Source of the DNA: a virus
Lineage: Duplodnaviria; Caudoviricetes
Reading direction: 5' to 3' (one strand)
DNA: 64,000 nucleotides
Virus record (IMG/VR): IMGVR_UViG_3300009370_001552
Span: 1-64,000 of that record
Under the pieces are notes generated by a model. It made no database searches. It was not told the origin of the DNA and saw only the letters and a list, made by a program, of their open reading frames with translations. This document shows, in pieces, positions 5,410 through 56,908 of this stretch (positions are counted from its first letter, which is position 1; every line of letters begins with the position of its first letter). The position numbers were made by a program, and so were the translations under genes.

Positions 5410-6563
5410 TTAGATATTCCTTTATTTATAATTTCAGATATAGTAATTATTTCATCATCTGTCAATTTTGGATGATTTGGTACATAAAATCCACACAAGT
5501 CAACTATGGTAACGTTGGGTAATTCTTTTTTCCCCCACTCTTTAACATAAAATGGCTGAGTTCCCATAGATCCACATATCATTGGTCTTACTTCAATATT
5601 ATTTTTTTGTAATTCTCTAACAATTTCATCTCTATTGGGATGAATAACTGGATAAGCAAAATTGGATACAAATGAATTAGGTTGTGGTTTTACTTTCCAA
5701 TAATCATTCTTAATTAATTTTTGATATAGATTAAAATTATATTCTCTCTTTTTACCCCAATCATCTAATTTATCAATCTGACCCAATCCTATAAATGCAT
5801 TCAAATCAGTTGACCTCAAATTATAACCAGAGTAATAAAATGTATACATAGCATCAAACTCCGAAACATTCCATTCCTTCTGTAATCCAGTTTGGGTTTC
5901 TTTCTTTAAGTCTCTATCCCACCCATGACTTCTAAGTGACACCATCAATTCATATAATTCTTCATCATCTGTAGATATAAATCCACCTTCTATTGTAGAA
6001 ATATGATGACCAAAAAAGGTAGAAAAAGATGACATTCTACCAAAAGTTCCGAGTTTCTTTCCTTTGTACTCACACCCCATTGATTCACAAGTATCTTCTA
6101 ATAACATTACATTATGTCTCTCACACAATTCAACTATTTTATCCATGTTGGGAACTAATCCCAAAACAGAAACCATCATTAAGGCATCTGGATTTTTTCT
6201 CCAAAAAATTTCTTCCAAATGTTCCAAATCAACTGACAAATCATCCATATTACAATCACATAATAATGGTATCATTCCCAACTGCATTACAGGTGCCAAG
6301 TCAGTAGCCCAAGCTACAGAAGGAACAACTACCTGAACATTATTCTTTCTATGATGATACTCTTTGAATGCACTTAACATCAATAGATTAGCTGATGAAC
6401 CTGAATTACAAAATACTGAATATTTTACTCCTAACCAATCAGACCACTTCTTTTCCAATTCTAAAGTCAATGGACCTTTGGTAAGTCTTGGATAAGTACC
6501 AAGCCATTCTATTAACTTATCTATATCATTATTACTTATTGTATCTTTTACTAAAGTTATCAT
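5406..6563 (-). CDS. colD: PLP-dependent GDP-4-keto-6-deoxymannose 3-dehydratase (ColD/E1-type DegT family)
   Basis: DegT fold (NSGSSANLL, EDTCES). The active-site segment FSTFFGHHISTIEGG has His at the position of the Schiff-base Lys, as in ColD/RfbH. Lies between gmd and fcl. Confidence 0.75.
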   Translation of the reverse strand: MITLVKDTISNNDIDKLIEWLGTYPRLTKGPLTLELEKKWSDWLGVKYSVFCNSGSSANLLMLSAFKEYHHRKNNVQVVVPSVAWATDLAPVMQLGMIPLLCDCNMDDLSVDLEHLEEIFWRKNPDALMMVSVLGLVPNMDKIVELCERHNVMLLEDTCESMGCEYKGKKLGTFGRMSSFSTFFGHHISTIEGGFISTDDEELYELMVSLRSHGWDRDLKKETQTGLQKEWNVSEFDAMYTFYYSGYNLRSTDLNAFIGLGQIDKLDDWGKKREYNFNLYQKLIKNDYWKVKPQPNSFVSNFAYPVIHPNRDEIVRELQKNNIEVRPMICGSMGTQPFYVKEWGKKELPNVTIVDLCGFYVPNHPKLTDDEIITISEIINKGISK

Positions 6564-7431
6564 ATACCTTTGATATTCCTTCTTCTAATGTAGTAAATTT
6601 AAAATCTTTTAAAACTGATAATAATTTAGATGAATCTACATCTTTTCTAAATTGTCCATCTGGTTTAGTGTTATCATAATTTACAACTATTTCATCTTTC
6701 TTACAAGCTTTTTTTCCAATATTTGCTATATCATTTATACTATAAACTTCTTCTGGAGCCACGTTAAAATTATCAACTATATCATTATCTATCATGTACT
6801 TTATAATTCTAGCTAAATCACCACCATACATAAATTGTCTTAATGGTTTTCCGGTACCCCATAATTCTATTTCACCATTAGCTTCATATATCTTTCTAAT
6901 TAGAGCCGATACAAAATGACTATGATGTTCTTCATATTTATCATACTCACCATATAAATTACAAGGTATTAAATAACACCACTTCTTATCATATTGTTTA
7001 ACATAAGAATCTATGTGAGCCGCCATACACCTCTTTGCAAAACCATAAGAAAAATTAGTTGGTGTAGGTGGACCATTGAAAAGGTCTTCCTCCAACATAG
7101 GATATCTATCAACCTTATCTGGATAAATACAAGTACTCAATATAGATATAACTCTCTCAACATTAAAATCATGACACTTTTTTAAAATATTAGTATTCAT
7201 CAATATATTTTCTTCGAGATAATCTACCGGACGGTTTATATTATCAACTATACCACCAACACGAGCAGCTAAATGTATAACTATTTTAGGTCTAAAGAAA
7301 TCTAACATAGAATCAACTCTATTTATATCTGTTAAATCAAAGTCTTTTGAAGATATGTAAACAGCATCTGGTAATATATCCTCTAAATGTTTTCCAACTA
7401 AACCAGATCCACCTGTAACTAATATGTTCAT
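6532..7431 (-). CDS. fcl: GDP-L-fucose synthase / GDP-4-keto-6-deoxy-sugar epimerase-reductase (Fcl/ColC)
   Basis: ILVTGGSGLVG, HLAARVGG, LSTCIYP, YGFAKR, PCNLYG, GTGKPLRQF and KPDGQFRK. ATG at 7431 (the ORF track began at an upstream TTG). Confidence 0.93.
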   Translation of the reverse strand: MNILVTGGSGLVGKHLEDILPDAVYISSKDFDLTDINRVDSMLDFFRPKIVIHLAARVGGIVDNINRPVDYLEENILMNTNILKKCHDFNVERVISILSTCIYPDKVDRYPMLEEDLFNGPPTPTNFSYGFAKRCMAAHIDSYVKQYDKKWCYLIPCNLYGEYDKYEEHHSHFVSALIRKIYEANGEIELWGTGKPLRQFMYGGDLARIIKYMIDNDIVDNFNVAPEEVYSINDIANIGKKACKKDEIVVNYDNTKPDGQFRKDVDSSKLLSVLKDFKFTTLEEGISKVYDNFSKRYNK

Positions 7432-8120: not shown

Positions 8121-8968
8121 TATAATACTATCTCCTTGCCTTTACCAGAATATTTCAAATAGTCTATATTCGAATAATCAAAATCTTTTAGTCTATAATT
8201 AGTCCAGTCACCCACGAATGGTCTGTTTACATTTATACAGCCTGCTATTGCGTCAATACTAGCTCCGACATCCATATAAACTGCGTTCTTGTACTCTTTA
8301 AATTTATGAAGTATACCCGATTTTGAATGTCCCACACCTAACAAAAATATGTCTGAATCAGATTCTTTTAACTGACTCCCAACAAATTCCTCCACTTTAT
8401 CTATATCATCACATGCGTATTTTTGTGGAAAATGAATATAATCATTGAAATCATCAATACCGAGATAATCTTTATATTCTTGCCTCCTAAGCAATTCTTG
8501 AATTAAATATAGTTTTTCGCTAGCACCTAGTATTCCTATTTTTCCACCAAATTCCTTAAAAAACCATCTGTTAGCAACCAGTCCATACGCATACTCAGCC
8601 GGATAACTTATCTCTTTTTGAATTACTTCGTTGAATTTAGATATATTTTCTGGATAAATTTCACATGTGTAATAATCATTAAGTTGAGCCCCACTAATAA
8701 ATTTATCATGGTTTATTTGATTATATGGTACACTAAGTGCTCTCTTACCCGGCGAAGCACTTCCAACTGATTGACCTTTTAAAAAAAAATAATCACCGTC
8801 TCCAAATTTATAAAAGGTTTTAGATTCATTATCGTTTACTAATTGTTTTACGTGTGATTTGTATATCTCTAATCCTTCTTGAAATTGAGGAAACGTATTC
8901 GGATCACCAAAACAAGGATTCGAATCCAAATTATTAGTACCATCTATTTTATATAAATCTAAGTACAC
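8120..8968 (-). CDS. GT-D fold (DUF1792-like) glycosyltransferase-like protein
   Basis: FYKFGDGDY near the N-terminus, and IFLLGVG...MDVGASID near the C-terminus, resemble GT-D motifs. Confidence 0.5.
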   Translation of the reverse strand: MYLDLYKIDGTNNLDSNPCFGDPNTFPQFQEGLEIYKSHVKQLVNDNESKTFYKFGDGDYFFLKGQSVGSASPGKRALSVPYNQINHDKFISGAQLNDYYTCEIYPENISKFNEVIQKEISYPAEYAYGLVANRWFFKEFGGKIGILGASEKLYLIQELLRRQEYKDYLGIDDFNDYIHFPQKYACDDIDKVEEFVGSQLKESDSDIFLLGVGHSKSGILHKFKEYKNAVYMDVGASIDAIAGCINVNRPFVGDWTNYRLKDFDYSNIDYLKYSGKGKEIVL

Positions 8969-10074
8969 TATACTCTGTCCTCAAAATACTTATTAACCCA
9001 ATAAATTACGTAATCAATATCTTCTTCAACCATCCTATTATGACAAGGTAAAGTAATTAACCTTAACCATTCTGTATCTGCTACTGGATACTCTCTATCT
9101 TGTAATAAAGGTGTATATTTATGAAGTGGTTTGAAATGTACTGATGTGTGTACTTTTTTATCAGCTAAATAATCAATCAATGAATCTCTATGTTCTTCTG
9201 GAACCCTTGCCACATAATATTGAACCGTTTCTGAATGCGGTGGGTTTTCAACTATAGAATTTAATTCATTGTTATATCTCGATTGTATATGTCTTCTAAA
9301 TTCTAAATTTGCAGGTAATTTTTTCATTTGTTCCAATCCAATAGCAGCCATTATGTCAATCATATAGTATTTATACCCAAGTATATCAACTTGGTAATCC
9401 CATGCGTATCCAGGTTTACCACTTTTACCTTGTGTTCTACTCCACGTAGAAGAAACACCAAACCAAGTCATTTCTCTACATTTATCTGATAACTCCTTAT
9501 CATTAGTAGTTATCATTCCACCATCTCCCATTGGCATAGTCTTTACTGCTTGGAATGACCATACTGCACAATCACCACCCAAACCGGCTCCTGGTGTATA
9601 ACAACTATGGGCCGTATCTTGAAGTATAAACCCACCAAAAACTTTTCTCAAACCTTCATAGTCGGCCAGTACACCAGCCTTATCTACCGCTATTAATAAT
9701 TCACTATTTGATTTTTTATACCTATCTACATCATCAGGATCTATACAAAGGGTATCCCGTTTAACATCTACTATATTACTTGTGAAATTATTCCAAAGTG
9801 GTATCATGGCTGTGGCTATAAAAGATATGGTTGGATTAATAACATCTATGTCTTTCCAACCCATAGCTTTCATTATTAAATCTTGTCCATGTGAAGCACT
9901 TGTAACAGCTATAGCGTATTTATGACCAACCATTTCGGCAAACTTCTCTTCAAATTCAGCAACCTTAGGACCTTTTCCCCACCAACCACTCTCAATAACT
10001 TCTTGTAATGCTTGTATTTCTTCTTTACCACCTTTAGGTCCTAAAACTGGTAACATATTTTCTCTTATTTCCAT
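8968..10074 (-). CDS. DegT/DnrJ/EryC1/StrS sugar aminotransferase
   Basis: GPKVAEFEEKFA, AVTSAS, QDTAHS and SFQAVKTMPMGDGGM with the catalytic Lys. Confidence 0.92.
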   Translation of the reverse strand: MEIRENMLPVLGPKGGKEEIQALQEVIESGWWGKGPKVAEFEEKFAEMVGHKYAIAVTSASHGQDLIMKAMGWKDIDVINPTISFIATAMIPLWNNFTSNIVDVKRDTLCIDPDDVDRYKKSNSELLIAVDKAGVLADYEGLRKVFGGFILQDTAHSCYTPGAGLGGDCAVWSFQAVKTMPMGDGGMITTNDKELSDKCREMTWFGVSSTWSRTQGKSGKPGYAWDYQVDILGYKYYMIDIMAAIGLEQMKKLPANLEFRRHIQSRYNNELNSIVENPPHSETVQYYVARVPEEHRDSLIDYLADKKVHTSVHFKPLHKYTPLLQDREYPVADTEWLRLITLPCHNRMVEEDIDYVIYWVNKYFEDRV

Positions 10075-10075
10075 T

Positions 10076-11092
10076 TTATAGCTCCTTATAAAAATTTACA
10101 AACTCATCAAATAACTCTACTGGTGAAGAATCATACAGTTCTCTATTATGATACTTATCAAATATTTTAACATTTTTTAAATTATCAGTTAAATCTCGTT
10201 CCCATTTAAATTTTAATCTCCAACCTTCTTCTACTGTCTGTTGAGTAAAAGTAACTGCACCTTCAATAAAAAATGGAAATACTGCCACGCCAGAAGCTCC
10301 ATATATACTACACTTTGTAGATTGTAATAAAGCTATTTGTTCTTCCACCGAATCTTCACCATTAAATATAATTGATTTAATATATTTCTTATTCTTTTTA
10401 TACATATCAGTATCTTCCATAGATAACGCCCCACCTGCACTGCTACCTTCTTTTCTTGGTATTCCAATCATTACTATGTTAACTTTTAAATTATTTATTA
10501 ACATATCAACAAATGTTTCCCAATGTTTTGGATCCCAATCAAGTTTACATACGTTACCGTTCCTATATCTTATACGAGCCATTACTGCTATAGTATCTCT
10601 TTTGTGAAATCCAATGCCTTGATTTTCAAAAGTAATTTTATTTCTTACAGAATCTAATATTTCTTTTCTAGCCTGATAATGTCTATAATATCCATCTGGA
10701 TTCTGTTCCCATGTTAAATTACTGGTATTAAGAGAAAAATGTTCTGGGACTGGAGATTCTATAACTACCTCATCAAAATCATCCATATACTGTTCTTTTA
10801 TTTGTTTAAGAAAATCAGAAAACTCTAATGGTATAATTTCCATCTTACCACCCCTATACTCACCACCACAGGATGGATAAATACTACAATCTTCTAATTC
10901 CTGTGGATATGGAATATAATCATCCACAAAATCTAAATATAAAATCTTTCTACCATTAAATCCGACCATAACAGAATGCCATCCTTCATATTTTGTTTGT
11001 TTAAGTTTTCTAATCTCTGGTATATACCAACTTAACTCAAAACAAAATTCCCCCAACCAAGGTCCAAATATAACTAACTTGTTCTTTTTCAT
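10076..11092 (-). CDS. Hypothetical protein (possible GT-B/GT9-like)
   Basis: 338 aa ORF with GPWLGEFCFEL and IYGASG. Family inferred from context only. Confidence 0.35.
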   Translation of the reverse strand: MKKNKLVIFGPWLGEFCFELSWYIPEIRKLKQTKYEGWHSVMVGFNGRKILYLDFVDDYIPYPQELEDCSIYPSCGGEYRGGKMEIIPLEFSDFLKQIKEQYMDDFDEVVIESPVPEHFSLNTSNLTWEQNPDGYYRHYQARKEILDSVRNKITFENQGIGFHKRDTIAVMARIRYRNGNVCKLDWDPKHWETFVDMLINNLKVNIVMIGIPRKEGSSAGGALSMEDTDMYKKNKKYIKSIIFNGEDSVEEQIALLQSTKCSIYGASGVAVFPFFIEGAVTFTQQTVEEGWRLKFKWERDLTDNLKNVKIFDKYHNRELYDSSPVELFDEFVNFYKEL

Positions 11093-48616: not shown

Positions 48617-49325
48617 CCTGAACTGCCACGAGGTAATACGTAGCATCGTATTCGTCTACTTTAAAATTGATCCGTGATAATCCTTGTTCACTTACTTCAA
48701 GCGTAGCACTTTCACATTCCTTATTTGCAGTCAATACATCCTTAAACAGAGTAGCATTAAATGAAACTTTATCAATATCTTCATATTCTTCAGTTTCTAC
48801 TGGAATTGTAACTCTGTTTGTATTAATTGACGAATAACCTATAACCAATTTTGTATCACCATTATCAGTAATTACAGTAAAAGTATCCGTATCTGGTAAT
48901 GCTGATTTACCATTGATAAACCTAACAATAAAGTTAGTATCCACTTTAATCTTCAACTGAAACTCTGGAAGTTTTTTCAATGCTGGTGGTTGGTTAATTA
49001 CTGATTTATCCGACAACATAAAATTGACTTTAGAATGTTTATCCGACACTTCTAATGCAATTGCTTTATCACCGGCTTGAGTTAAATTAAGTGTTACATC
49101 ATCATCTAAAACTCCCAATAATCTACTAAATTGTTCTGTATCATATACTCCCAACTCTGCATCTTGAAAAGTCCAACTATTCATTGATAATTCACCAAGC
49201 ATTGCTTTATCTCCAGTAATAAAACGGGTACTTAATGTATCATCGTTACTGTTTATAACTACCGCATTTACATTACCACCCAAATGGTATTTGTCTATAA
49301 AACGGGTTAATTTGTGTTTATTCAT
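48606..49325 (-). CDS. DNA polymerase sliding clamp (gp45/PCNA-like)
   Basis: 239 aa, immediately downstream of the polymerase. ELGVYDTEQFSRLL and the C-terminal ATYYLVA pattern of phage clamps. Confidence 0.75.
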   Translation of the reverse strand: MNKHKLTRFIDKYHLGGNVNAVVINSNDDTLSTRFITGDKAMLGELSMNSWTFQDAELGVYDTEQFSRLLGVLDDDVTLNLTQAGDKAIALEVSDKHSKVNFMLSDKSVINQPPALKKLPEFQLKIKVDTNFIVRFINGKSALPDTDTFTVITDNGDTKLVIGYSSINTNRVTIPVETEEYEDIDKVSFNATLFKDVLTANKECESATLEVSEQGLSRINFKVDEYDATYYLVAVQDVN

Positions 49326-49350
49326 TTACTATTCTCCTATTGTTTAATCT

Positions 49351-49368
49351 GTATATACATATATATCA
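49351..49368 (-). promoter_or_regulatory. TGATATATATGTATATAC promoter-like motif, copy 2
   Basis: Near-identical to 19162..19181; upstream of the clamp SD (AGGAGA). Confidence 0.5.
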
Positions 49369-49384
49369 GTTTTATTATTCAAAA

Positions 49385-50301
49385 TTAAAAAAATCTTTCC
49401 AGACTTTGCTCTTCATCTACCGGTGATCCCCAGTCTAAACACTCATAAAATAAATTGAGTTTTTTAGTGAGTGCCCTATCATATATCTTGTCGTAATCCA
49501 TATTTTCCTTAATAAACTGCATAATTTCTGGTGGATCTTCATAACCTTTATATGCCACTACTGTTAATCCAAGTGGATTATTCTTTAGATACACCCATCG
49601 TATTTTATCTCCATTACTAATAAACCCATATTTTTTATCTCGTTTATAGTATCGTAGTAAATCATTATAACTTACTGATGCTCTTACATGAACTGGAATA
49701 CCTTTCTTTAATACTGTAAATACTGATGAGTTTTTATTGTCCTTTTTAATATATTTCCACATTCCCTTTACACCAGTTGGAGACGATATTTCATCCAAAT
49801 CTTTTAATCTCATATTTTTCTTAAATCTGGTTATTCTATGGTCTATTTTATCTCGTGGAACACTTGCCAAAATATCTTCCAATACATCACTTAATAACTG
49901 TCTAAATGCTGGTGCGAAATTACTACGCACCGTATCCAATCCCTTTACCATAGTCTTGTTTACCTGAACTCCATTATCACTAATGATTTTCATACCATAT
50001 CGTTTCTTGGTAATAAATAAACCGGACTTTGCTATAATTTCCTGTTTAATCTCAAATCTGTGTTTATCTAAATTACAAAACTTCTTTGCAAAATAATCAT
50101 ATGAATTATTTAAATATTCTTGAACTTCGGTTGCTATTTCATTTATTCGTTGTGCCATCATTACATCACTCATTTCCTTACCCTTAAATCTATGGTTAAT
50201 GAGTTTTAGTGCTGATACGAAAATGGAGTCAGTCAGGTGTCAATATAGATCACATGATCCATATTGACATTAGGCAGCCTCCTTATTTTTTTTATTTTCA
50301 T
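49385..50301 (-). CDS. polB: Family B DNA polymerase, C-terminal subunit (palm motif C + thumb), interrupted by a 5-nt frameshift in DTDS
   Basis: True start is ATG 50301: MKIKKIRRLPNVNMDHVIYIDT-stop. Resumes 5 nt later as DSIFVS...MSDVMM, then KKRYG, KGLDTVRS and YKGYED. Removing 5 nt gives 303 aa with YIDTDS. Confidence 0.85.
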
Positions 50302-50302
50302 T

Positions 50303-51136
50303 CTATTCCTTAATTTCTATAAATTTACAACCAAGATGGTCTATTATTTCTTGTTTTCTTCTTTCATCTCGTTCTACTTGTTTTTTATGGAATGGTTCAT
50401 AATACTCTATAACCACGTTTTTTTCTTTATCATAACCATCTACAAAATATCCCAATTCTTTAATGTGATATTCACCACCGTTTTCAGCGTGTTGGAAATT
50501 GTATCCGTTTTCTTTTCCGTATTGTTCTATTAGTTTACAGGCTTCTGGGTTATATCCAGGCATCATTTGTCCACCATTAAAAACATTTCTCTCAATTCTC
50601 TTAATTGCAGATTTTCTCATTCTCCGCAATTCCTCCGTTCTCTTCGGGCGTTTATAGTTTCCACTATCTTCACCAGTCCGGATTTTTAATTTACTTACCT
50701 CTTTATTCATTTCATCTGCAATTTCAACACCAAACTTATCTACCCATACCTGGTAATAACTGCTACCATAATTTCCATTCCGTTCTCCACTCGCACCACG
50801 AGATTTGTTAAACTCATCAAATTGTTCTTTAGTCCAACCATACTTCTTTTTCTTATATTCAAATGAGTTGGAATGTGCTTGTTTTTCTCTATATTCATCC
50901 CATTTGATTTTTCCATCTATTTCACCGTGTTTTTTAATCATATTCTCTAAAGTATTAACTCGTTTACTTTGATATTTAATTTTAGCAACTTTAGCTTCAT
51001 CTAAATCCATTCCCTTAAATATAGTAAAGTATTCTATTGTTCCAGGTACTCTACTCAATCTCATTTTTTCAGCTTCTTCTTTTTCATAACCTTTGCCTAA
51101 CCAATGTTGTAGTGTTCTAGCACTTCCTCTACTCAT
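50303..51136 (-). mobile_element. Free-standing putative homing endonuclease (helical W/Y-x3-G repeats + HAENGGE nuclease) splitting polB
   Basis: C-terminal YNPEAC..FQHAENGGEY..VDGYDKEKNVVIEYYE..H domain shared with 16079..16774; sits between the two polymerase halves. Confidence 0.8.
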
Positions 51137-51178
51137 AATTTTTCTCCGTTAAGTTTTATATAGACACATCTGTATCTA

Positions 51179-51190
51179 TATATAAATATC
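51179..51190 (-). promoter_or_regulatory. Recurrent TATTTAT promoter-like motif
   Basis: GATATTTATATA in the 57-nt gap before the polB-splitting endonuclease. Confidence 0.5.
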
Positions 51191-51192
51191 AC

Positions 51193-52950
51193 TTAACCCA
51201 AAAAATCATCTGTTTCCAGTAAATCTTTTACTTTTATTTCCATTTTTCTACCGTTTCGTATTACATCAATTCTATTATTTTCGTGTAATTTTCTAACTTC
51301 ACCATTTTCCAATTCAACTTCAACGGGAGGTCCCAATTCACTATTATACTTATGATTTGCTATTTTTGCAGTGAACTTAATTAAATCCTGTCCTACTGTC
51401 GTCACAGAAGCCGCATTATCCAAATCATAAAATCTCCATCCCTGAAGTCCAAGTACGCCGTAAAGTGAATTAAGTAAAACCTTCTGGATATATTGCCGTC
51501 TATTAAAATACTCGTATCGTTCATCATTTCCTTCATCTGCAAATTTCCTTGCTAATTTTCTAAATTCCTTTCGTGTATCAAACCACTTGGATAGAATAGT
51601 TGAAATTAAACCTGCCTTATCCGTTTTATATAATATACCTTCACTTGAAATTGATACTTCATTATCATTAAAAAATGTCTCTAATTCTGTATTAGTTAAT
51701 TGTCCTTTCCTTTTCCCATTTAATATAATAGAATGTGTCTTTTTCTTCTTTCCTATAAAATCTTGAGCGTTCCACCCAACTACTTTTCCAAATTTTGTTT
51801 CTGGACTTATATTTAAGCTCATAATTATAGAAGGATACATACTTGTAATATCCAAATCATATACCCAGTCATGTTTACCCCGTTGTGGGCGTTTTACATA
51901 TGCACCTACAAACTTGTTATCTGTAAACTCACCCTTTTCTGGTTTATTAGGGGCAACGATATTCAATTTCTTCAAGTGAGTTAAAATTGCTCCTTCTAAA
52001 TATCTACTACTGAAATATATATCTTCATATGGAACATGACCAATATGACAAATACCTCGTGCAATGTCAATAAAATCTAATTTATCATCCAATTGTTTTA
52101 CTATTCTAACATCATGAATATTATATTCCACAAACTTTCTCAAATCATTTTCATATAAATCATTCAATGTTCCATCATAACTTATTTTAGTTGAACCAAC
52201 CTCTGTTTGACCTATATCATCCAATCTATATGATGGTCTTGATCCAAATGTAAAATCTTTATAGAGTAATAGATAATCTAATACACTTACCCCTGCTATT
52301 TTATATCGTTTAGTGTATTTACTATACATCACTTTTGATATCGGTGATAAATTGTCTGCAACACTTTGACCGAGAACTCTAATTGTTCTATTATATAAAT
52401 ATGGAATATCGAAACCATCTACATTCCAACCAGTAATTATAGTAGGTCGTAATTCTAAATATTTTTGGTAAAACCTCTGTAACAATTCATATTCCGTCTG
52501 ACAACTTTCTACTACACTCTTGCCAAATCCTGTTGTATCTAATGTCTTACGTTCATCTAATACTAAACAAGTGTAAACATTTCTGATATTATCCCACATA
52601 GCAATTGAAGTTATTTTATTCGGTGCCTTCATTGGGTCTGGAAATCCCTCTGTAACTTCACACTCAATATCAAATATGAATATCTTATGTCCAGTGGACG
52701 GTTCTTCACTTTTCCCATACATATCAATCAAAGTTCTCATTTCAGGATTTACATCACTTTCCCACAATCCCTGTGCAGTCTTATCCCATCTATATACTTT
52801 CTTTAATTTATCACCATATAAAGATGCAAACGTTCCATAATTATCTTTAATATAAGCATACTTTTTATATTGCGTTGTTATATGTCCGTTACGATCATCC
52901 CAAATGTGGACAACCCCCTTGAATGGTTCTACATAGATATTTTGATAAAT
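51193..52950 (-). CDS. polB: Family B DNA polymerase, N-terminal subunit (exonuclease, motifs A and B) with a Hint-like C-terminal tail; probable AUU start
   Basis: Exo motifs FDIEC, GWNVDGFD and YNIHD; DLDITSMYPS; QKVLLNSLYG. The frame extends 61 codons upstream of the annotated TTG start to (I)YQNIYVE, with no ATG/GTG after the stop at 52972..52974. Confidence 0.9.
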   Translation of the reverse strand: MYQNIYVEPFKGVVHIWDDRNGHITTQYKKYAYIKDNYGTFASLYGDKLKKVYRWDKTAQGLWESDVNPEMRTLIDMYGKSEEPSTGHKIFIFDIECEVTEGFPDPMKAPNKITSIAMWDNIRNVYTCLVLDERKTLDTTGFGKSVVESCQTEYELLQRFYQKYLELRPTIITGWNVDGFDIPYLYNRTIRVLGQSVADNLSPISKVMYSKYTKRYKIAGVSVLDYLLLYKDFTFGSRPSYRLDDIGQTEVGSTKISYDGTLNDLYENDLRKFVEYNIHDVRIVKQLDDKLDFIDIARGICHIGHVPYEDIYFSSRYLEGAILTHLKKLNIVAPNKPEKGEFTDNKFVGAYVKRPQRGKHDWVYDLDITSMYPSIIMSLNISPETKFGKVVGWNAQDFIGKKKKTHSIILNGKRKGQLTNTELETFFNDNEVSISSEGILYKTDKAGLISTILSKWFDTRKEFRKLARKFADEGNDERYEYFNRRQYIQKVLLNSLYGVLGLQGWRFYDLDNAASVTTVGQDLIKFTAKIANHKYNSELGPPVEVELENGEVRKLHENNRIDVIRNGRKMEIKVKDLLETDDFLG

Positions 52951-53014: not shown

Positions 53015-54649
53015 TTATGTGACGCATGTATCAGAATTACAGAATTTTTCTACAATCGCTTCATTGCCTTTGACTTGTCTAAATGATAAATGTTTTAATT
53101 TCTTCAATAATTTATTATATGTCTTTTCATCAATTTCTTCATATGGCATTTGTTTGTATGCTCCGAGTTCGTGTCGTGGTAAGAAAGAAACTGACTTTAA
53201 TTTATATTGGTAAAAATCTAATGCTGACTTAATTTGATCACCTTCTGTTTCTGGGTCAAATGTAATGGTAACTGAAACAGCATTGTCTGCCCAATGTTCG
53301 GCCATAAATGCTGCCAACTCTAATTGTTCCCATATTGAAACTGACTTTAATGTTTTTATTCCGTCACCCACATCAACTGGAACTTCAACTACTACCGTTG
53401 AATCTTCTTGACCTACTGCTGGTTCTATATGATACCCAGCACTCTTTAACGCTTTTATCAATGGACTATCGTTACCTAATCTAATTCGTCGTATGTAAAA
53501 ACGAGATTCTGGATAATGTATTCCAGGAGTTGCTCCAGCTAAAAGGCTGATTGAACCTGATGGTTTATTTGTAGAAAGTCTAATACTCCTTGGGATAGCA
53601 AACCAATCCGAATATATTTTATCATATTCTTTTAATGAATTGTATCCAGACCTTAACCAATCTTTCAATATAGATAATGAATTATTAGTTAAAAACTGTG
53701 TAACTCCACTTACAGAAGTTCCCACTCGTCTGTTTCGTAACATTACTCTGTTAGTTTCTGGCCAATGGGTGTCTAATAAAGTTACTGTCTTTGAATAAAG
53801 GTATGCATATTTTAATGACTTAATGAAATCTTCTTTACTTTCGTGTCTATCTGGAAATACTTCTACAAGATTGCATTTCTCGCCAGATTCTAACACGATT
53901 TCGCCACAGGGATTGGTCCCCATCGTTCTATTATCACTTACACCATTAGTCCCATCTCCCATTCTTTTATTATTATGAGCATTTTCTAACCAAATTAGTC
54001 CAGGTTCACCATTATTTTTAATTCGTTCTGCTATATCAGTATAATCCATACCAAGTTCTGCTAATACTGAATTGTTTGAAGCCCAACCGAAGTCAGCTCT
54101 TTCTGGATTCTTTTTATAATCTTTTAAGTCCAAAAATTGTTCAGTATTGTCTCCTGCTGCTAGCAATGCGCTGCGTCGCACATTTCCAGCCACGACAGCC
54201 TTTCCAATTAAATTAAATATATCAACTATATTTCGTTCACTAATTGGACTACCAATACTTTCTGTTAAAATCTCTGTTACTTTATCGTGTAATGCCTTTA
54301 ACGGCTTATACCCAGATGAAGTTCCACCAAATGTTTTTATAATGGCACCTTCCGGTCTGATTTTAGAATAATCAAATACTGGTCGTTGAGAGTTACCAAA
54401 GAAAGAATCTATAACATATCCTAAACTTTCTACCCATCCCTCTCTACTGTCTGGAACAGTAAAATTAAATTCGTTATGAGATGGTGATTTAATTGTTATT
54501 TGGTCTGCACCTTTTGTATCAAATCCCACACCAACTCCACAATTATGAACAACATTACCATTTCCCAAAACATATGTGTTATTTCCTGGTATGGTTAAAT
54601 CATAAAATAGTTCATCGTTTGGTATATAGTTTTTATTAATAATTTTCAC
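53015..54649 (-). CDS. nrdJ: Class II (adenosylcobalamin) monomeric ribonucleotide reductase, C-terminal precursor with IntC
   Basis: IntC then CGVGVGFD, GNVRRSA, GTNPCGEI (N-C-E), CNLVE, KPSGSIS and terminal FCNSDTC; GTG start overlapping the endonuclease TGA. Confidence 0.93.
   Translation of the reverse strand: MKIINKNYIPNDELFYDLTIPGNNTYVLGNGNVVHNCGVGVGFDTKGADQITIKSPSHNEFNFTVPDSREGWVESLGYVIDSFFGNSQRPVFDYSKIRPEGAIIKTFGGTSSGYKPLKALHDKVTEILTESIGSPISERNIVDIFNLIGKAVVAGNVRRSALLAAGDNTEQFLDLKDYKKNPERADFGWASNNSVLAELGMDYTDIAERIKNNGEPGLIWLENAHNNKRMGDGTNGVSDNRTMGTNPCGEIVLESGEKCNLVEVFPDRHESKEDFIKSLKYAYLYSKTVTLLDTHWPETNRVMLRNRRVGTSVSGVTQFLTNNSLSILKDWLRSGYNSLKEYDKIYSDWFAIPRSIRLSTNKPSGSISLLAGATPGIHYPESRFYIRRIRLGNDSPLIKALKSAGYHIEPAVGQEDSTVVVEVPVDVGDGIKTLKSVSIWEQLELAAFMAEHWADNAVSVTITFDPETEGDQIKSALDFYQYKLKSVSFLPRHELGAYKQMPYEEIDEKTYNKLLKKLKHLSFRQVKGNEAIVEKFCNSDTCVT
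54542..54649 (-). other. Split intein C-fragment (36 aa)
   Basis: MKIINK...FYDLTIPGNNTYVLGNGNVVHN followed by +1 Cys. Confidence 0.93.
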
Positions 54650-56115
54650 AATATTTTCCTCTCGTCTATCAATTTCAAAACTTTATTAAAATCTTGTTTT
54701 ACATCATTTTCCCAAATAACTAAAACATTATATCCCATATTTTCTAATTCATTTATTCTATTTCTATCAGTTAAATGAACAGATGAAAATGAAATATTAT
54801 CAGCAATGCTATCTGATTCGGTATATATTTCTGGATTCATATGCCAATAATCACCGAAAAACTCAACAATTAAATTTAACTCTGGTATATAAAAATCACA
54901 ACAATATGTACAATCTTTACCATGTACAAAATATTGATGAATTGTTTTTAGATATTCATTTGATATTACAGAATACACCTTATATTCCATTTTTGAAACT
55001 TTATTCATATTTTTCAAATTAATAAGTGATGCTCGTCTGCTATTATCACTTATTATTTTTTTAGCATCATTTATATTATATCCACGGTTTATCCAAAATT
55101 CCTTACTAAATGAACTTGTTTTAATCGCAAATTCATATGCTAACTTTTTAGATTCACTCATCGAATATCCAATATTTAGCCAATAATATATGCATTTACG
55201 TTGTTTACGTGCTCGTTTAGATTGGTTTTTATGAATTATATAAATACTTTCTTCGTCAGAAAATCCTAATCTGTTCCAATATTTTATATTGTTATAACTA
55301 CTATCAGATAATTTTTTTGACTTTTCTTCATATAATTCACTCCCACGTTTATTACCATATTTATTTACATAGTATTTTTTAGATGAAAAATCTTGATTTC
55401 CACTTATTATTTTTTTAGCCACACTTTCATCATATCCAAGTTTTATCCAATATTCTACACATCGAACATTATTACTTCGTTTAATATAATCGGCTTCATT
55501 ATTAGTGATGCCCCTTGCTTTAAAATACTGTGTAGTTGGATATCTATTAGCTTTAGATACCCTATCTACTGATTTATATTTTTTATATTCTTCAACGGAC
55601 CCCAACCTGGTAATTAAATTTTCTCGTGTTAATGAACACCTCGATTTTGCTTTAGTTGCCAATTTCTTCGCACTCAATATTGATTCACCGCGAATCTCCC
55701 AATATTCAGGATATTTATTACTGGTTGTGCGTTTTATATAACTAGAATACGTTATAGCGTCATCGTTTGAAAATCCATTTTCTATCCAAAATTTTGTAGT
55801 TTTAACAAGCGTATTAGTAATAGCTTTATGTTTAATTTTATTAAAAACATCACTTAAATTTCTAATTTTCCAAAATATAGGATTTTTACTATCAGATAGA
55901 ATCCTATCCTTTCGTAATCGAAGTTTATTGTTAATTTCATCTTCCGAATGTCCTTTTATTTTCCACTGGTTTATCCAATACCCCTCACTACCTCTACTAT
56001 CTGATGTAGCACATTTTTTACATACCGTCTCGTTAAAAATTGAATTCTCCAACTGATATTTAGTAGAATATATTTGAGTTGCCCCACAATTATTACAGTT
56101 TTTTTTATGTTTCAT
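54646..56115 (-). mobile_element. Free-standing Vsr/DUF559-like homing endonuclease with tandem W-x3-G helical repeats, splitting nrdJ
   Basis: SKME...CDFYIPELNLIVEFFGDYWH...D..R...GYNVLVIWE; about 9 repeats; N-terminal CNNC/CKKC. Confidence 0.85.
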
Positions 56116-56148
56116 TTTATTTTCCTAATTTATATACTTATGTCGTTA

Positions 56149-56160
56149 TTAATAAATATA
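56149..56160 (-). promoter_or_regulatory. Recurrent TATTTAT promoter-like motif
   Basis: TATATTTATTAA upstream of the nrdJ-splitting endonuclease. Confidence 0.5.
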
Positions 56161-56167
56161 CGAAATT

Positions 56168-56908
56168 TTAATTTTCATTAGAAATATAAAAATTCTCTAT
56201 GTTATCATTACCATTAATATCTTTAGCTTCTACCCACCCCCTGTTTATAGTTAAAAATAAATGGTCTTCTGTACATCTAACAGTACTACCATCTTCAAAT
56301 TCCAACTCAATTATTTTCTTATCCGACACCTCATTTTTTAATACTTTGTCTGGATATATAAAAGAATATCTTTTAGTTTCTTCATTAAACGATAGTACTT
56401 TGTCATCAACTGTTATATCTTTAATTTTTTTATTTCCACCATCAGTTAAAATTAAAGTGTCTGGATGAAAACACATCAACATATCCATAGCAAATACAAA
56501 TGGAAATGATAGACTATCTTTTATATTTTCTGTACTAATAAAATTACAATTGAATAGTGCGGGAGTGAGTTTCTTCTTTGTAATAATATCTGTACCCATT
56601 GCCCACAAACCACGTCCGGGAGGAAGTAATTTCATATTAAACATTCTATCATACATTTCTTGTGCACTTCGTTGAGCTTGCCATGGATTCCAACCCAATC
56701 TATGTTTTTCAATCCACTCTTTCTGAATTGTATATGTGCCCTCTACAACTCTACGAACTGTTTCCCACCATTGTTCATTTTTTCCATCTTCCTTTATACG
56801 AGAATAGGTTCTCATATATACTAAATGTCCCAAACCATTAAATCCAAATGGTTCTTTTTTTCTTTTATAATTTTCTATAAAATTTTTACTTAAAACGAAT
56901 TTTTCCAT
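56168..56908 (-). CDS. nrdJ: Class II ribonucleotide reductase, N-terminal precursor with IntN
   Basis: YMRTYSR, E.W.ET.RRV, LPPGRGLWAMG and ALFNC, then the intein from Cys146. Confidence 0.93.
   Translation of the reverse strand: MEKFVLSKNFIENYKRKKEPFGFNGLGHLVYMRTYSRIKEDGKNEQWWETVRRVVEGTYTIQKEWIEKHRLGWNPWQAQRSAQEMYDRMFNMKLLPPGRGLWAMGTDIITKKKLTPALFNCNFISTENIKDSLSFPFVFAMDMLMCFHPDTLILTDGGNKKIKDITVDDKVLSFNEETKRYSFIYPDKVLKNEVSDKKIIELEFEDGSTVRCTEDHLFLTINRGWVEAKDINGNDNIENFYISNEN
56171..56473 (-). other. Split intein N-fragment (101 aa)
   Basis: CFHPDT block A, CTEDHLFLT block B (TxxH), RGWVEAKDI, then stop. Confidence 0.93.

Follow-up and report, generated by a model that had tools for sequence, protein, structure and literature searches.

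Organization of a split DNA polymerase gene

How can a phage DNA polymerase function when its gene is cut in two by another gene and is interrupted once more, by a stop codon and a change of frame, inside its catalytic motif C? This question is raised by the polB gene in a 64,000-nucleotide (nt) stretch of DNA from a marine Caudoviricetes phage (IMG/VR record IMGVR_UViG_3300009370_001552, positions 1 to 64,000; hereafter the window). We propose, with a probability of about 0.6, that polB was fractured by a homing-endonuclease cassette, that a tail on the N-subunit and a head on the C-subunit, both derived from a dead intein, dock the two halves, and that the C-subunit is made by a ribosomal hop of +5 nt. 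The locus lies on the minus strand throughout and, in window coordinates, has the following parts.

51331-52950, minus strand: polB N-part core, comprising the exonuclease with motifs A and B and ending in ..SELG; Pfam DNA_pol_B 6e-27, exo1 2e-22
51196-51330, minus strand: C-terminal tail of 45 residues, followed by stop codon TAA 51193-51195; extra relative to intact relatives
51137-51192, minus strand: spacer of 56 nt with a hairpin, holding an out-of-frame 15-mer that codes for YIDTD (51168-51182)
50303-51136, minus strand: free-standing putative homing endonuclease, 277 residues (codons 51136-50306) plus TAG stop; phrog_22677 match
50266-50301, minus strand: N-terminal head of the C-subunit, MKIKKIRRLPNV; not present in intact polB
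50238-50269, minus strand: predicted RNA hairpin of 14 base pairs whose 3' end is the first base of the take-off codon; from folding and compensatory pairs
50231-50238, minus strand: candidate take-off Thr codon ACC (50238-50236) and 5-nt gap TGACT (50235-50231), with stop codon TGA 50235-50233 and landing Thr codon ACT 50233-50231
49385-50230, minus strand: polB C-part, which begins at the second Asp of motif C and closes with the stop codon (rest of the palm, KKRY, thumb); Pfam DNA_pol_B 7e-08

As stated in the initial annotation, which was made from the sequence alone, polB is cut between motif B and motif C by a free-standing endonuclease, with the N-part at 52950..51196 and the endonuclease-like open reading frame (ORF) at 51136..50306. 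The cut lies 12 codons before motif C and corresponds to approximately residue 608 of phage T4 gp43, which together with RB69 gp43 is the closest solved polymerase. The probable start of the N-part is ATT 52950-52948, located 7 nt after AAGAGG; the equivalent codon is GTG in one relative (L091) and ATG in another (L092). TTG 52767, the start chosen by the ORF finder, is the first canonical start codon and would drop 61 conserved residues, and the frame remains open further upstream, where it matches the N-terminus of the relative P0005.

ATG 50301 is positioned one base past the TAG stop of the endonuclease gene. The C-subunit had been assigned to this codon, and the head is indeed present there and extra, but the frame is not open to the end of the gene: it encodes MKIKKIRRLPNV and ten polymerase residues ending in YIDT, and closes after 22 codons at TGA 50235-50233. 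The remaining polymerase sequence (TDS.. to 49388, from ACT 50233-50231 onward) is in a different frame, and motif C thus reads YIDT-stop/TDS. ATG 50173, the ORF finder's choice for the C-part, is CTG in L001 and is therefore not its start.

Intact and split relatives

The locus was compared with 80 related loci from viral contigs, to which the N-part is 60-91% identical; L006-L080 are of the intact type (60-71% identity). In approximately 74 intact relatives polB is contiguous and proceeds from ..SELG to DTDS without tail or head. The match to the N-part stops at residue 479 (..ELG) and the match to the C-part resumes 36 nt further on, the twelve intervening residues being T-E-K-D-Y-C-I-Y-I-D-T-D. 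Since the intact relatives run from ..ELG straight to motif C, the 45-residue tail must have been inserted, as must the initial 11-12 residues of the head. This agrees with the earlier proposal that both appendages are additional, and in none of L006-L080 does either of them occur as a loop of an ordinary polymerase.

The same tail, head and frame break are found in L001-L005 and L088-L090 (91% identity, at least eight assemblies), where the middle ORF differs from that of the window in being much shorter, Vsr-like and without a clear start (L001 6575-7036). A third lineage, L091, has no endonuclease gene, and approximately 36 nt separate the stop codon of the tail from the head ATG. This interval retains the last 30 nt of the window's endonuclease ORF (L091 5151-5182), indicating that the gene was deleted. 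These three gap-bearing lineages diverge by only ~10-15% in DNA. The 285-kb contig L092 carries the tail, a GIY-YIG endonuclease gene (5980-6693) and a C-part starting with MKIKKIEKGKQ that is uninterrupted through YIDTDS. A tail profile search of 1.84 billion representatives revealed further split polB N-parts with the same type of tail (P0007, P0010/P0014, P0012, P0013 and P0015), and the tail forms the protein C-terminus in every family member found. The phage isolate collection contained no close relative and no tail match, and a scan of genome contigs returned intact or distant polB only. Because four loci share the appendages but differ in the middle gene, the tail and head are old and have stayed constant, and what varies is the endonuclease.

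The tail is related to the distal half of a split-intein fragment

The initial annotation aligned the tail by eye with the N-terminal fragment (IntN) of the split intein in the window's own ribonucleotide reductase (RNR). The same register was recovered by hhalign (P 0.016 to 0.001), although direct Smith-Waterman alignment of the two sequences was not significant. A hidden Markov model (HMM) profile of three tail sequences matches P0011 at a library-wide E-value of 2.3e-4. P0011 is a true IntN fragment whose block A is led by Cys and whose block B reads TPNH, and it matches Pfam Intein_splicing (4e-6), Hint (1.7e-4) and the Pab PolC intein (2.8e-4). When the ten-member tail family was compared with P0011 using hhalign, the probability was 95-97% (E 1.8e-8, P 7e-12) over 43-48 columns with 40% identity. 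A second true IntN, from the clamp-loader gene of locus L082 (8453-9085), matches the tail HMM at 2.6e-7 among 12,244 ORFs. The Pfam Intein_splicing profile also matches the tails of three relatives in the same profile region, weakly and below the curated cut-off (6.8e-4, 0.016 and 0.024). Against PDB sequences, the three-sequence profile retrieved no intein at E 10, and a ten-sequence alignment (A3) retrieved polymerases only, since polB columns had entered the profile.

An AlphaFold2 model of the 50-residue tail region (mean predicted local distance difference test, pLDDT, 85.7) has four strands. The top Foldseek matches of this model are nearly all inteins (probability 0.95-0.99), with E-values that are non-significant for such a small domain, and the model superposes on residues 50-96 of NpuDnaE, in accordance with a Hint fold. 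The matched block is the N2 half of IntN, which extends from block B to the canonical split or endonuclease-insertion site, and the window's endonuclease gene sits where the N2 half ends, that is, at this canonical site of the Hint fold. On the profile matches (P0011, L082 IntN) and the fold match (NpuDnaE), the proposal that the tail is an intein piece with its catalytic ends lost was borne out, and its identification as a relic of the distal (N2) half of a split-intein IntN holds at the level of sequence profiles and models.

The tail begins with Pro, Thr or Asn right after ..SELG, has no block A Cys/Ser, and aligns only with IntN residues ~50-100, the N1 half being absent. None of the ten tails retains the block-B His; they have HENN, NGND, NEND, TENR or YPNK in the register of TPNH in P0011 and of TEDH in the RNR and clamp-loader IntNs. 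The head (11-12 residues) runs directly into polymerase sequence with no His-Asn and no blocks F/G, and the +1 nucleophile is also absent, with Val/Leu at the position where the ELG of intact relatives is followed by Thr. The initial annotation had correctly noted the replaced TxxH, the missing block-A nucleophile of the tail and the missing His-Asn of the head. Because block A, the block-B T..H, blocks F/G and the +1 nucleophile are all missing, protein splicing of the split polB is excluded on sequence grounds. The tail shows a ratio of nonsynonymous to synonymous substitution rates (dN/dS) of 0.13-0.30, which indicates purifying selection, and it persists in L091 after the loss of the endonuclease.

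The head of the C-subunit

The sequence MKIKKI is common to the heads of the window, L001, L091 and the distant L092. The head carries one ATA/ATT change, which is synonymous in the head frame, and TAAGGA is found 6-11 nt upstream of its ATG in the window and L001. The head had been interpreted as the first strand of a C-terminal intein fragment (IntC). It resembles residues 4-12 of the L082 IntC, the partner of the tail-like clamp-loader IntN, as a strand of alternating K and I with 5 identical and 2 conservative residues of 9 positions (shuffle p about 0.02, with values of 0.004-0.09 depending on the lineage), but its Smith-Waterman comparison with the IntC of the window's RNR was not significant. 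Derivation of the head from an IntC first strand is plausible. The IRR motif of the head is confined to the gap-bearing lineages. The head also contains AAGGAGG (50278-50284, minus strand), a strong Shine-Dalgarno-like sequence that encodes two Arg as tandem rare AGG codons; it is kept in the three gap-bearing lineages, absent from the gap-less L092, and paired in the window's predicted fold with CUCC just 3' of the landing site.

A five-base gap in motif C

The simple two-subunit polymerase of the initial annotation has to be amended, since a conserved 5-nt gap in motif C had been overlooked and the C-subunit needs recoding. The DNA at the break reads ATT GAC ACC TGA CTG ACT CC in the window, GTC GAC ACT TGA CTG ATT CT in L001 and ATC GAC ACT TGA CTG ATT CA in L091, and the order ACY-TGACT-GAY found in the window recurs in L001-L005, L088-L090 and L091. 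If TGACT is excised, the sequence reads Y(I/V)DTDS, as it does in every intact relative. The flanking codons vary synonymously, each side in its own frame, and third-position changes dominate after the break. All three lineages have the series expected of a bypass cassette (ACC/ACT, UGA, ACU), and the insert is unchanged in DNA contigs of two studies.

In the window, a 78-nt fold has -24.6 kcal/mol (z-score -5.0), with z-scores of -3.7 in L001, -5.0 in L091 and -0.1 in the gap-less L092. Three stem pairs of the hairpin at 50269-50238 are changed on both sides in a compensatory manner. For the 48 nt that precede the Thr codon, the folding energies in the gap-bearing lineages are -17.8, -11.6 and -12.0 kcal/mol, against a mean of -3.9 kcal/mol (standard deviation 2.0, minimum -8.0) in 75 gap-less relatives.

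From this pattern we infer a +5 hop of Thr-tRNA at motif C. While UGA occupies the A site of the ribosome, peptidyl-tRNA(Thr) would leave ACC and re-pair on ACU 5 nt downstream, restoring the invariant YIDTDS; the C-subunit would be produced only via that hop. The process may be aided by the stable hairpin that abuts the site on its 5' side, and perhaps by a basic nascent peptide. Such a hop would explain the duplicated Thr codon together with the stop, and by our estimate approximately 1 in 500 random 5-mers would give both a stop and a matching codon. No tRNA genes were found in the window. Other forms of recoding were considered and rejected: neither a -1 shift (IDTLTDS) nor a +2 shift (IDTTDS) has a slippery site, and when TGA is read as sense a TAA is reached nine codons on.

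The main rival to the hop is reinitiation at an overlapping UUG (CUG in the window). Ribosomes would stop at UGA 50235-50233 and restart at the overlapping (C/U)UG, producing a three-piece polymerase composed of the N-subunit, a 22-residue peptide ending in ..YIDT and a C-subunit beginning with Met-Thr-Asp-Ser. In L001 and L091, TTG does overlap TGA (UUGA), which would permit a restart, and the frame after the break is clearly coding. However, the CUG of the window is a very poor start codon, the two catalytic aspartates would fall in separate chains, and both the duplicated Thr codon (~1 in 500 by chance) and the hairpin specific to the gap-bearing lineages would be left unexplained. We consider reinitiation without a hop improbable.

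It could also be supposed that the interruption is removed from the RNA, as a group I intron or by other processing, or that it reflects faulty assembly or the decay of a pseudogene. Group I introns are a frequent location of endonuclease genes, and contigs from RNA libraries span the endonuclease gene and the tail, and not the gap. However, no Rfam family was detected in 49300-52900 even at E 10, five bases are too few for an intron, and the tail and head are conserved as protein. An assembly error is contradicted by the identity of the insert in more than eight independent assemblies and in contigs of two studies, and the dN/dS of the C-part between lineages (0.04-0.07) excludes its decay. 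Taken together, these explanations appear very improbable.

Proposed docking of the polymerase halves

The tail and head would be the residue of a split intein, or intein flanks brought in by a mobile endonuclease cassette, and they may have been kept for non-covalent docking of the polymerase halves, like the tails of the MobE-split NrdA and the MobA-split topoisomerase. In the 'capture and collapse' work on Npu DnaE, the N2 half and IntC reportedly mediate the initial association of the split intein. Structure prediction of a complex of the two appendages, run with the L092 sequences (alignments A4 and A5), scored 0.30 where the mark was 0.32, which speaks neither for nor against binding. 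By analogy with these systems, we infer that the tail and head act as a docking device.

Alternatively, both may be passive scars, that is, intein flanks that hitch-hiked with the endonuclease and are tolerated but unneeded, with the halves held together by their own palm/thumb interface. Only the endonuclease-proximal intein parts are present, where IntN ends and IntC begins, as for co-converted flanks, and the dN/dS of the tail exceeds the 0.04-0.07 of the core, although it is still well below 1. Against this reading, the tail is gap-free across lineages down to 39-50% identity and persists in L091 after endonuclease loss. The split NrdA supports either side: according to PMC3045599, its heterodimer forms without the tails, but the tails are essential for activity. 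On balance, passive scars seem unlikely.

Several observations weigh against the proposed docking and hop. When the window's tail was searched by itself against Pfam, neither Hint nor an intein family was matched, and the Smith-Waterman score of the tail with the window's RNR IntN was 36 (shuffle p 0.036), with other window segments scoring higher. Because the head offers only 9-12 residues for comparison, its IntC origin is suggestive at most. The tails might count less for docking than supposed, because the NrdA heterodimer forms without them and the insertion in a fused T4 topoisomerase affects activity little (PMC11461880). To these points should be added the overlapping TTG codons and the RNA contigs that do not reach the gap.

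The endonuclease gene and the spacer

The 277-residue ORF matches phrog_22677 at 5.7e-10 over its N-terminal repeats, and the same family is matched by the window's RNR endonuclease and the short L001 ORF. Its C-terminal domain shows a weak match to DUF559 (0.086), and no match was found among PDB sequences. The ORF was designated a putative Vsr/DUF559-like endonuclease on the basis of the family membership via the N-terminal repeats and the weak DUF559 match. The endonuclease appears to have turned over at one site, which is occupied by the 277-residue ORF, the short Vsr-like ORF, the 30-nt remnant or the GIY-YIG gene, with tail and head in all four. The 5-nt insert in motif C probably protects the resident allele from its own endonuclease, by analogy with the 50-nt insert in T4 gene 60.

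The pattern TAY ATH GAY ACN GAY occurs once in the 64 kb on both strands, at 51168-51182 (minus strand) in the spacer, where it is out of frame and inside the hairpin. This 15-mer is identical to the motif-C DNA of the intact relative L058 and could represent a relic of the homing site or an operator of the endonuclease.

Comparison with known split genes

In fractured genes, a split intein is accompanied by a free-standing endonuclease, often Vsr-like, whose gene separates the two halves (Dassa et al. 2009, PMC2677866). The polB locus has the same order of N-half with intein-N sequence, endonuclease gene and C-half, but what it keeps of IntN is the N2 half only, next to ~12 residues that may stem from an IntC; it lacks any splicing residues and has halves that cannot be ligated. 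A textbook fractured gene adjoins it: the class II RNR gene of the window (53015-56908, minus strand) is interrupted by a complete split intein (Cys1, TEDH, and His-Asn followed by Cys), and its halves flank the gene of a 489-residue Vsr-like endonuclease from a family related to that of the polB endonuclease (phrog_22677). In L082, from an L001-type phage, a clamp-loader gene (8453-10752) is fractured after Walker B by a complete split intein, with a 297-residue endonuclease gene between the halves. Among true intein parts, the IntN and IntC of this gene come nearest to the polB tail and head.

In Aeromonas phage Aeh1 (NrdA-a / mobE / NrdA-b), insertion-derived tails assemble a split enzyme and are needed for its activity (Crona et al. 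2011, PMC3045599). As in polB, a free-standing endonuclease interrupts an essential enzyme linked to replication, the halves carry new tails at a C- and an N-terminus that intact homologues lack, and non-covalent assembly is proposed. The polB gene resembles this type in being contiguous in relatives, in having an endonuclease gene between its halves and in bearing tails that the contiguous homologues lack. The Aeh1 system differs in its host gene and its HNH endonuclease, no intein origin was reported for its tails, and tail function was demonstrated there at the bench, whereas for polB it is proposed by analogy.

The locus also parallels the gene 39 / mobA / gene 60 cassette of phage T4, which has a translational bypass of 50 nt (Bonocora 2011; Manning and Atkins 2022, bioRxiv 10.1101/2022.08.31.505936). 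The gene 60 bypass cassette has been described as unique and confined to topoisomerase genes (bioRxiv 10.1101/2022.08.31.505936). Both loci have an endonuclease flanked by extensions at a C- and an N-terminus, as well as a coding gap in a catalytic acidic motif; in both, the take-off codon has a matching landing codon and is followed by a stop codon, and the tails and gap persist where the endonuclease is lost or replaced. They differ in host gene (topoisomerase versus polB), in gap length (50 nt versus 5 nt, with nothing to align between the bypass elements) and in the position of the hairpin, which lies around the take-off codon in T4 and 5' of it in polB. The polB head is also much shorter, and the polB bypass is a predicted one.

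The last 40 residues of T4 gp39 show the pattern of the polB tail, including N-E-N-D at the block B position. Six tails of the T4 type (from T4, Proteus PM2, Acinetobacter fHyAci03, Salmonella SEA1, Campylobacter IBB35 and Aeromonas 60AhydR15PP) were aligned with the polB tails by hhalign over the whole length with 77% probability (P 2e-5, score 25.0), compared to a mean of 8.8 and a maximum of 18.8 for 200 column-shuffled controls. Direct hhalign comparison of the T4-type tails with three IntNs was not significant (P 0.003-0.09, inconsistent registers), and Pfam gave no match for the T4 gp39 tail; because the direct IntN comparison was not significant, an intein origin of these tails would rest on transitivity. 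T4 gp60 and its SEA1 counterpart start with MKF.K. and have VRR before the take-off site. The gp39 and gp60 extensions form a pendant thought to aid assembly (PMC11461880).

T4-type PolB proteins of Aeromonas phages are also encoded by two cistrons, with or without an endonuclease gene between them, and the motif-C region is targeted in these phages as well. Split gp43A/gp43B is known from the T4-like phages 25 and 44RR (Petrov 2010, as cited in PMC2988022), and PolB1 of Aes123 contains a functional cysteine-less split intein (PMC11923092, PDB 9HTH) with the native exteins Thr-2, Asp-1 and Val+2 (PMC13014065). These exteins suggest its insertion between DTD and S. In contrast to this working intein, the window's polB is cut 12-13 residues upstream and is non-splicing.

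Significance

The initial annotation was not aware of a description of its arrangement; a claim that nothing comparable is known would go too far. Endonuclease-split genes with functional tails are already published (PMC3045599; bioRxiv 10.1101/2022.08.31.505936), but in a search of the full-text literature no paper was found that gives such tails an origin as intein remnants. The polB locus joins two phenomena kept apart in the literature, the fractured genes repaired by split inteins and the endonuclease-split genes with unexplained tails, and it suggests that the latter may arise from the former by loss of catalysis. Its ~45 + 12 residues would constitute a natural docking module and a candidate non-covalent protein clasp. 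It also provides a candidate for a natural ribosomal bypass of short length, which falls within the catalytic DTD of an essential polymerase and is linked to an endonuclease as in T4 gene 60; the proposed signals of this hop are few and easily mutated (matched Thr codons, UGA, the 5' hairpin and a basic nascent peptide).

A broader reading, which we advance only tentatively and judge to be somewhat against the odds, is that assembly tails left by homing-endonuclease cassettes are generally split-intein relics (the N2 half and the first IntC strand), including the C-terminal extension of T4 gp39 and the N-terminal extension of gp60, with the polB element as a cousin that has a minimal 5-nt bypass. 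If this is true, protein splicing would have given way to plain docking time and again, and endonuclease self-immunity would recurrently be accompanied by ribosomal bypass.

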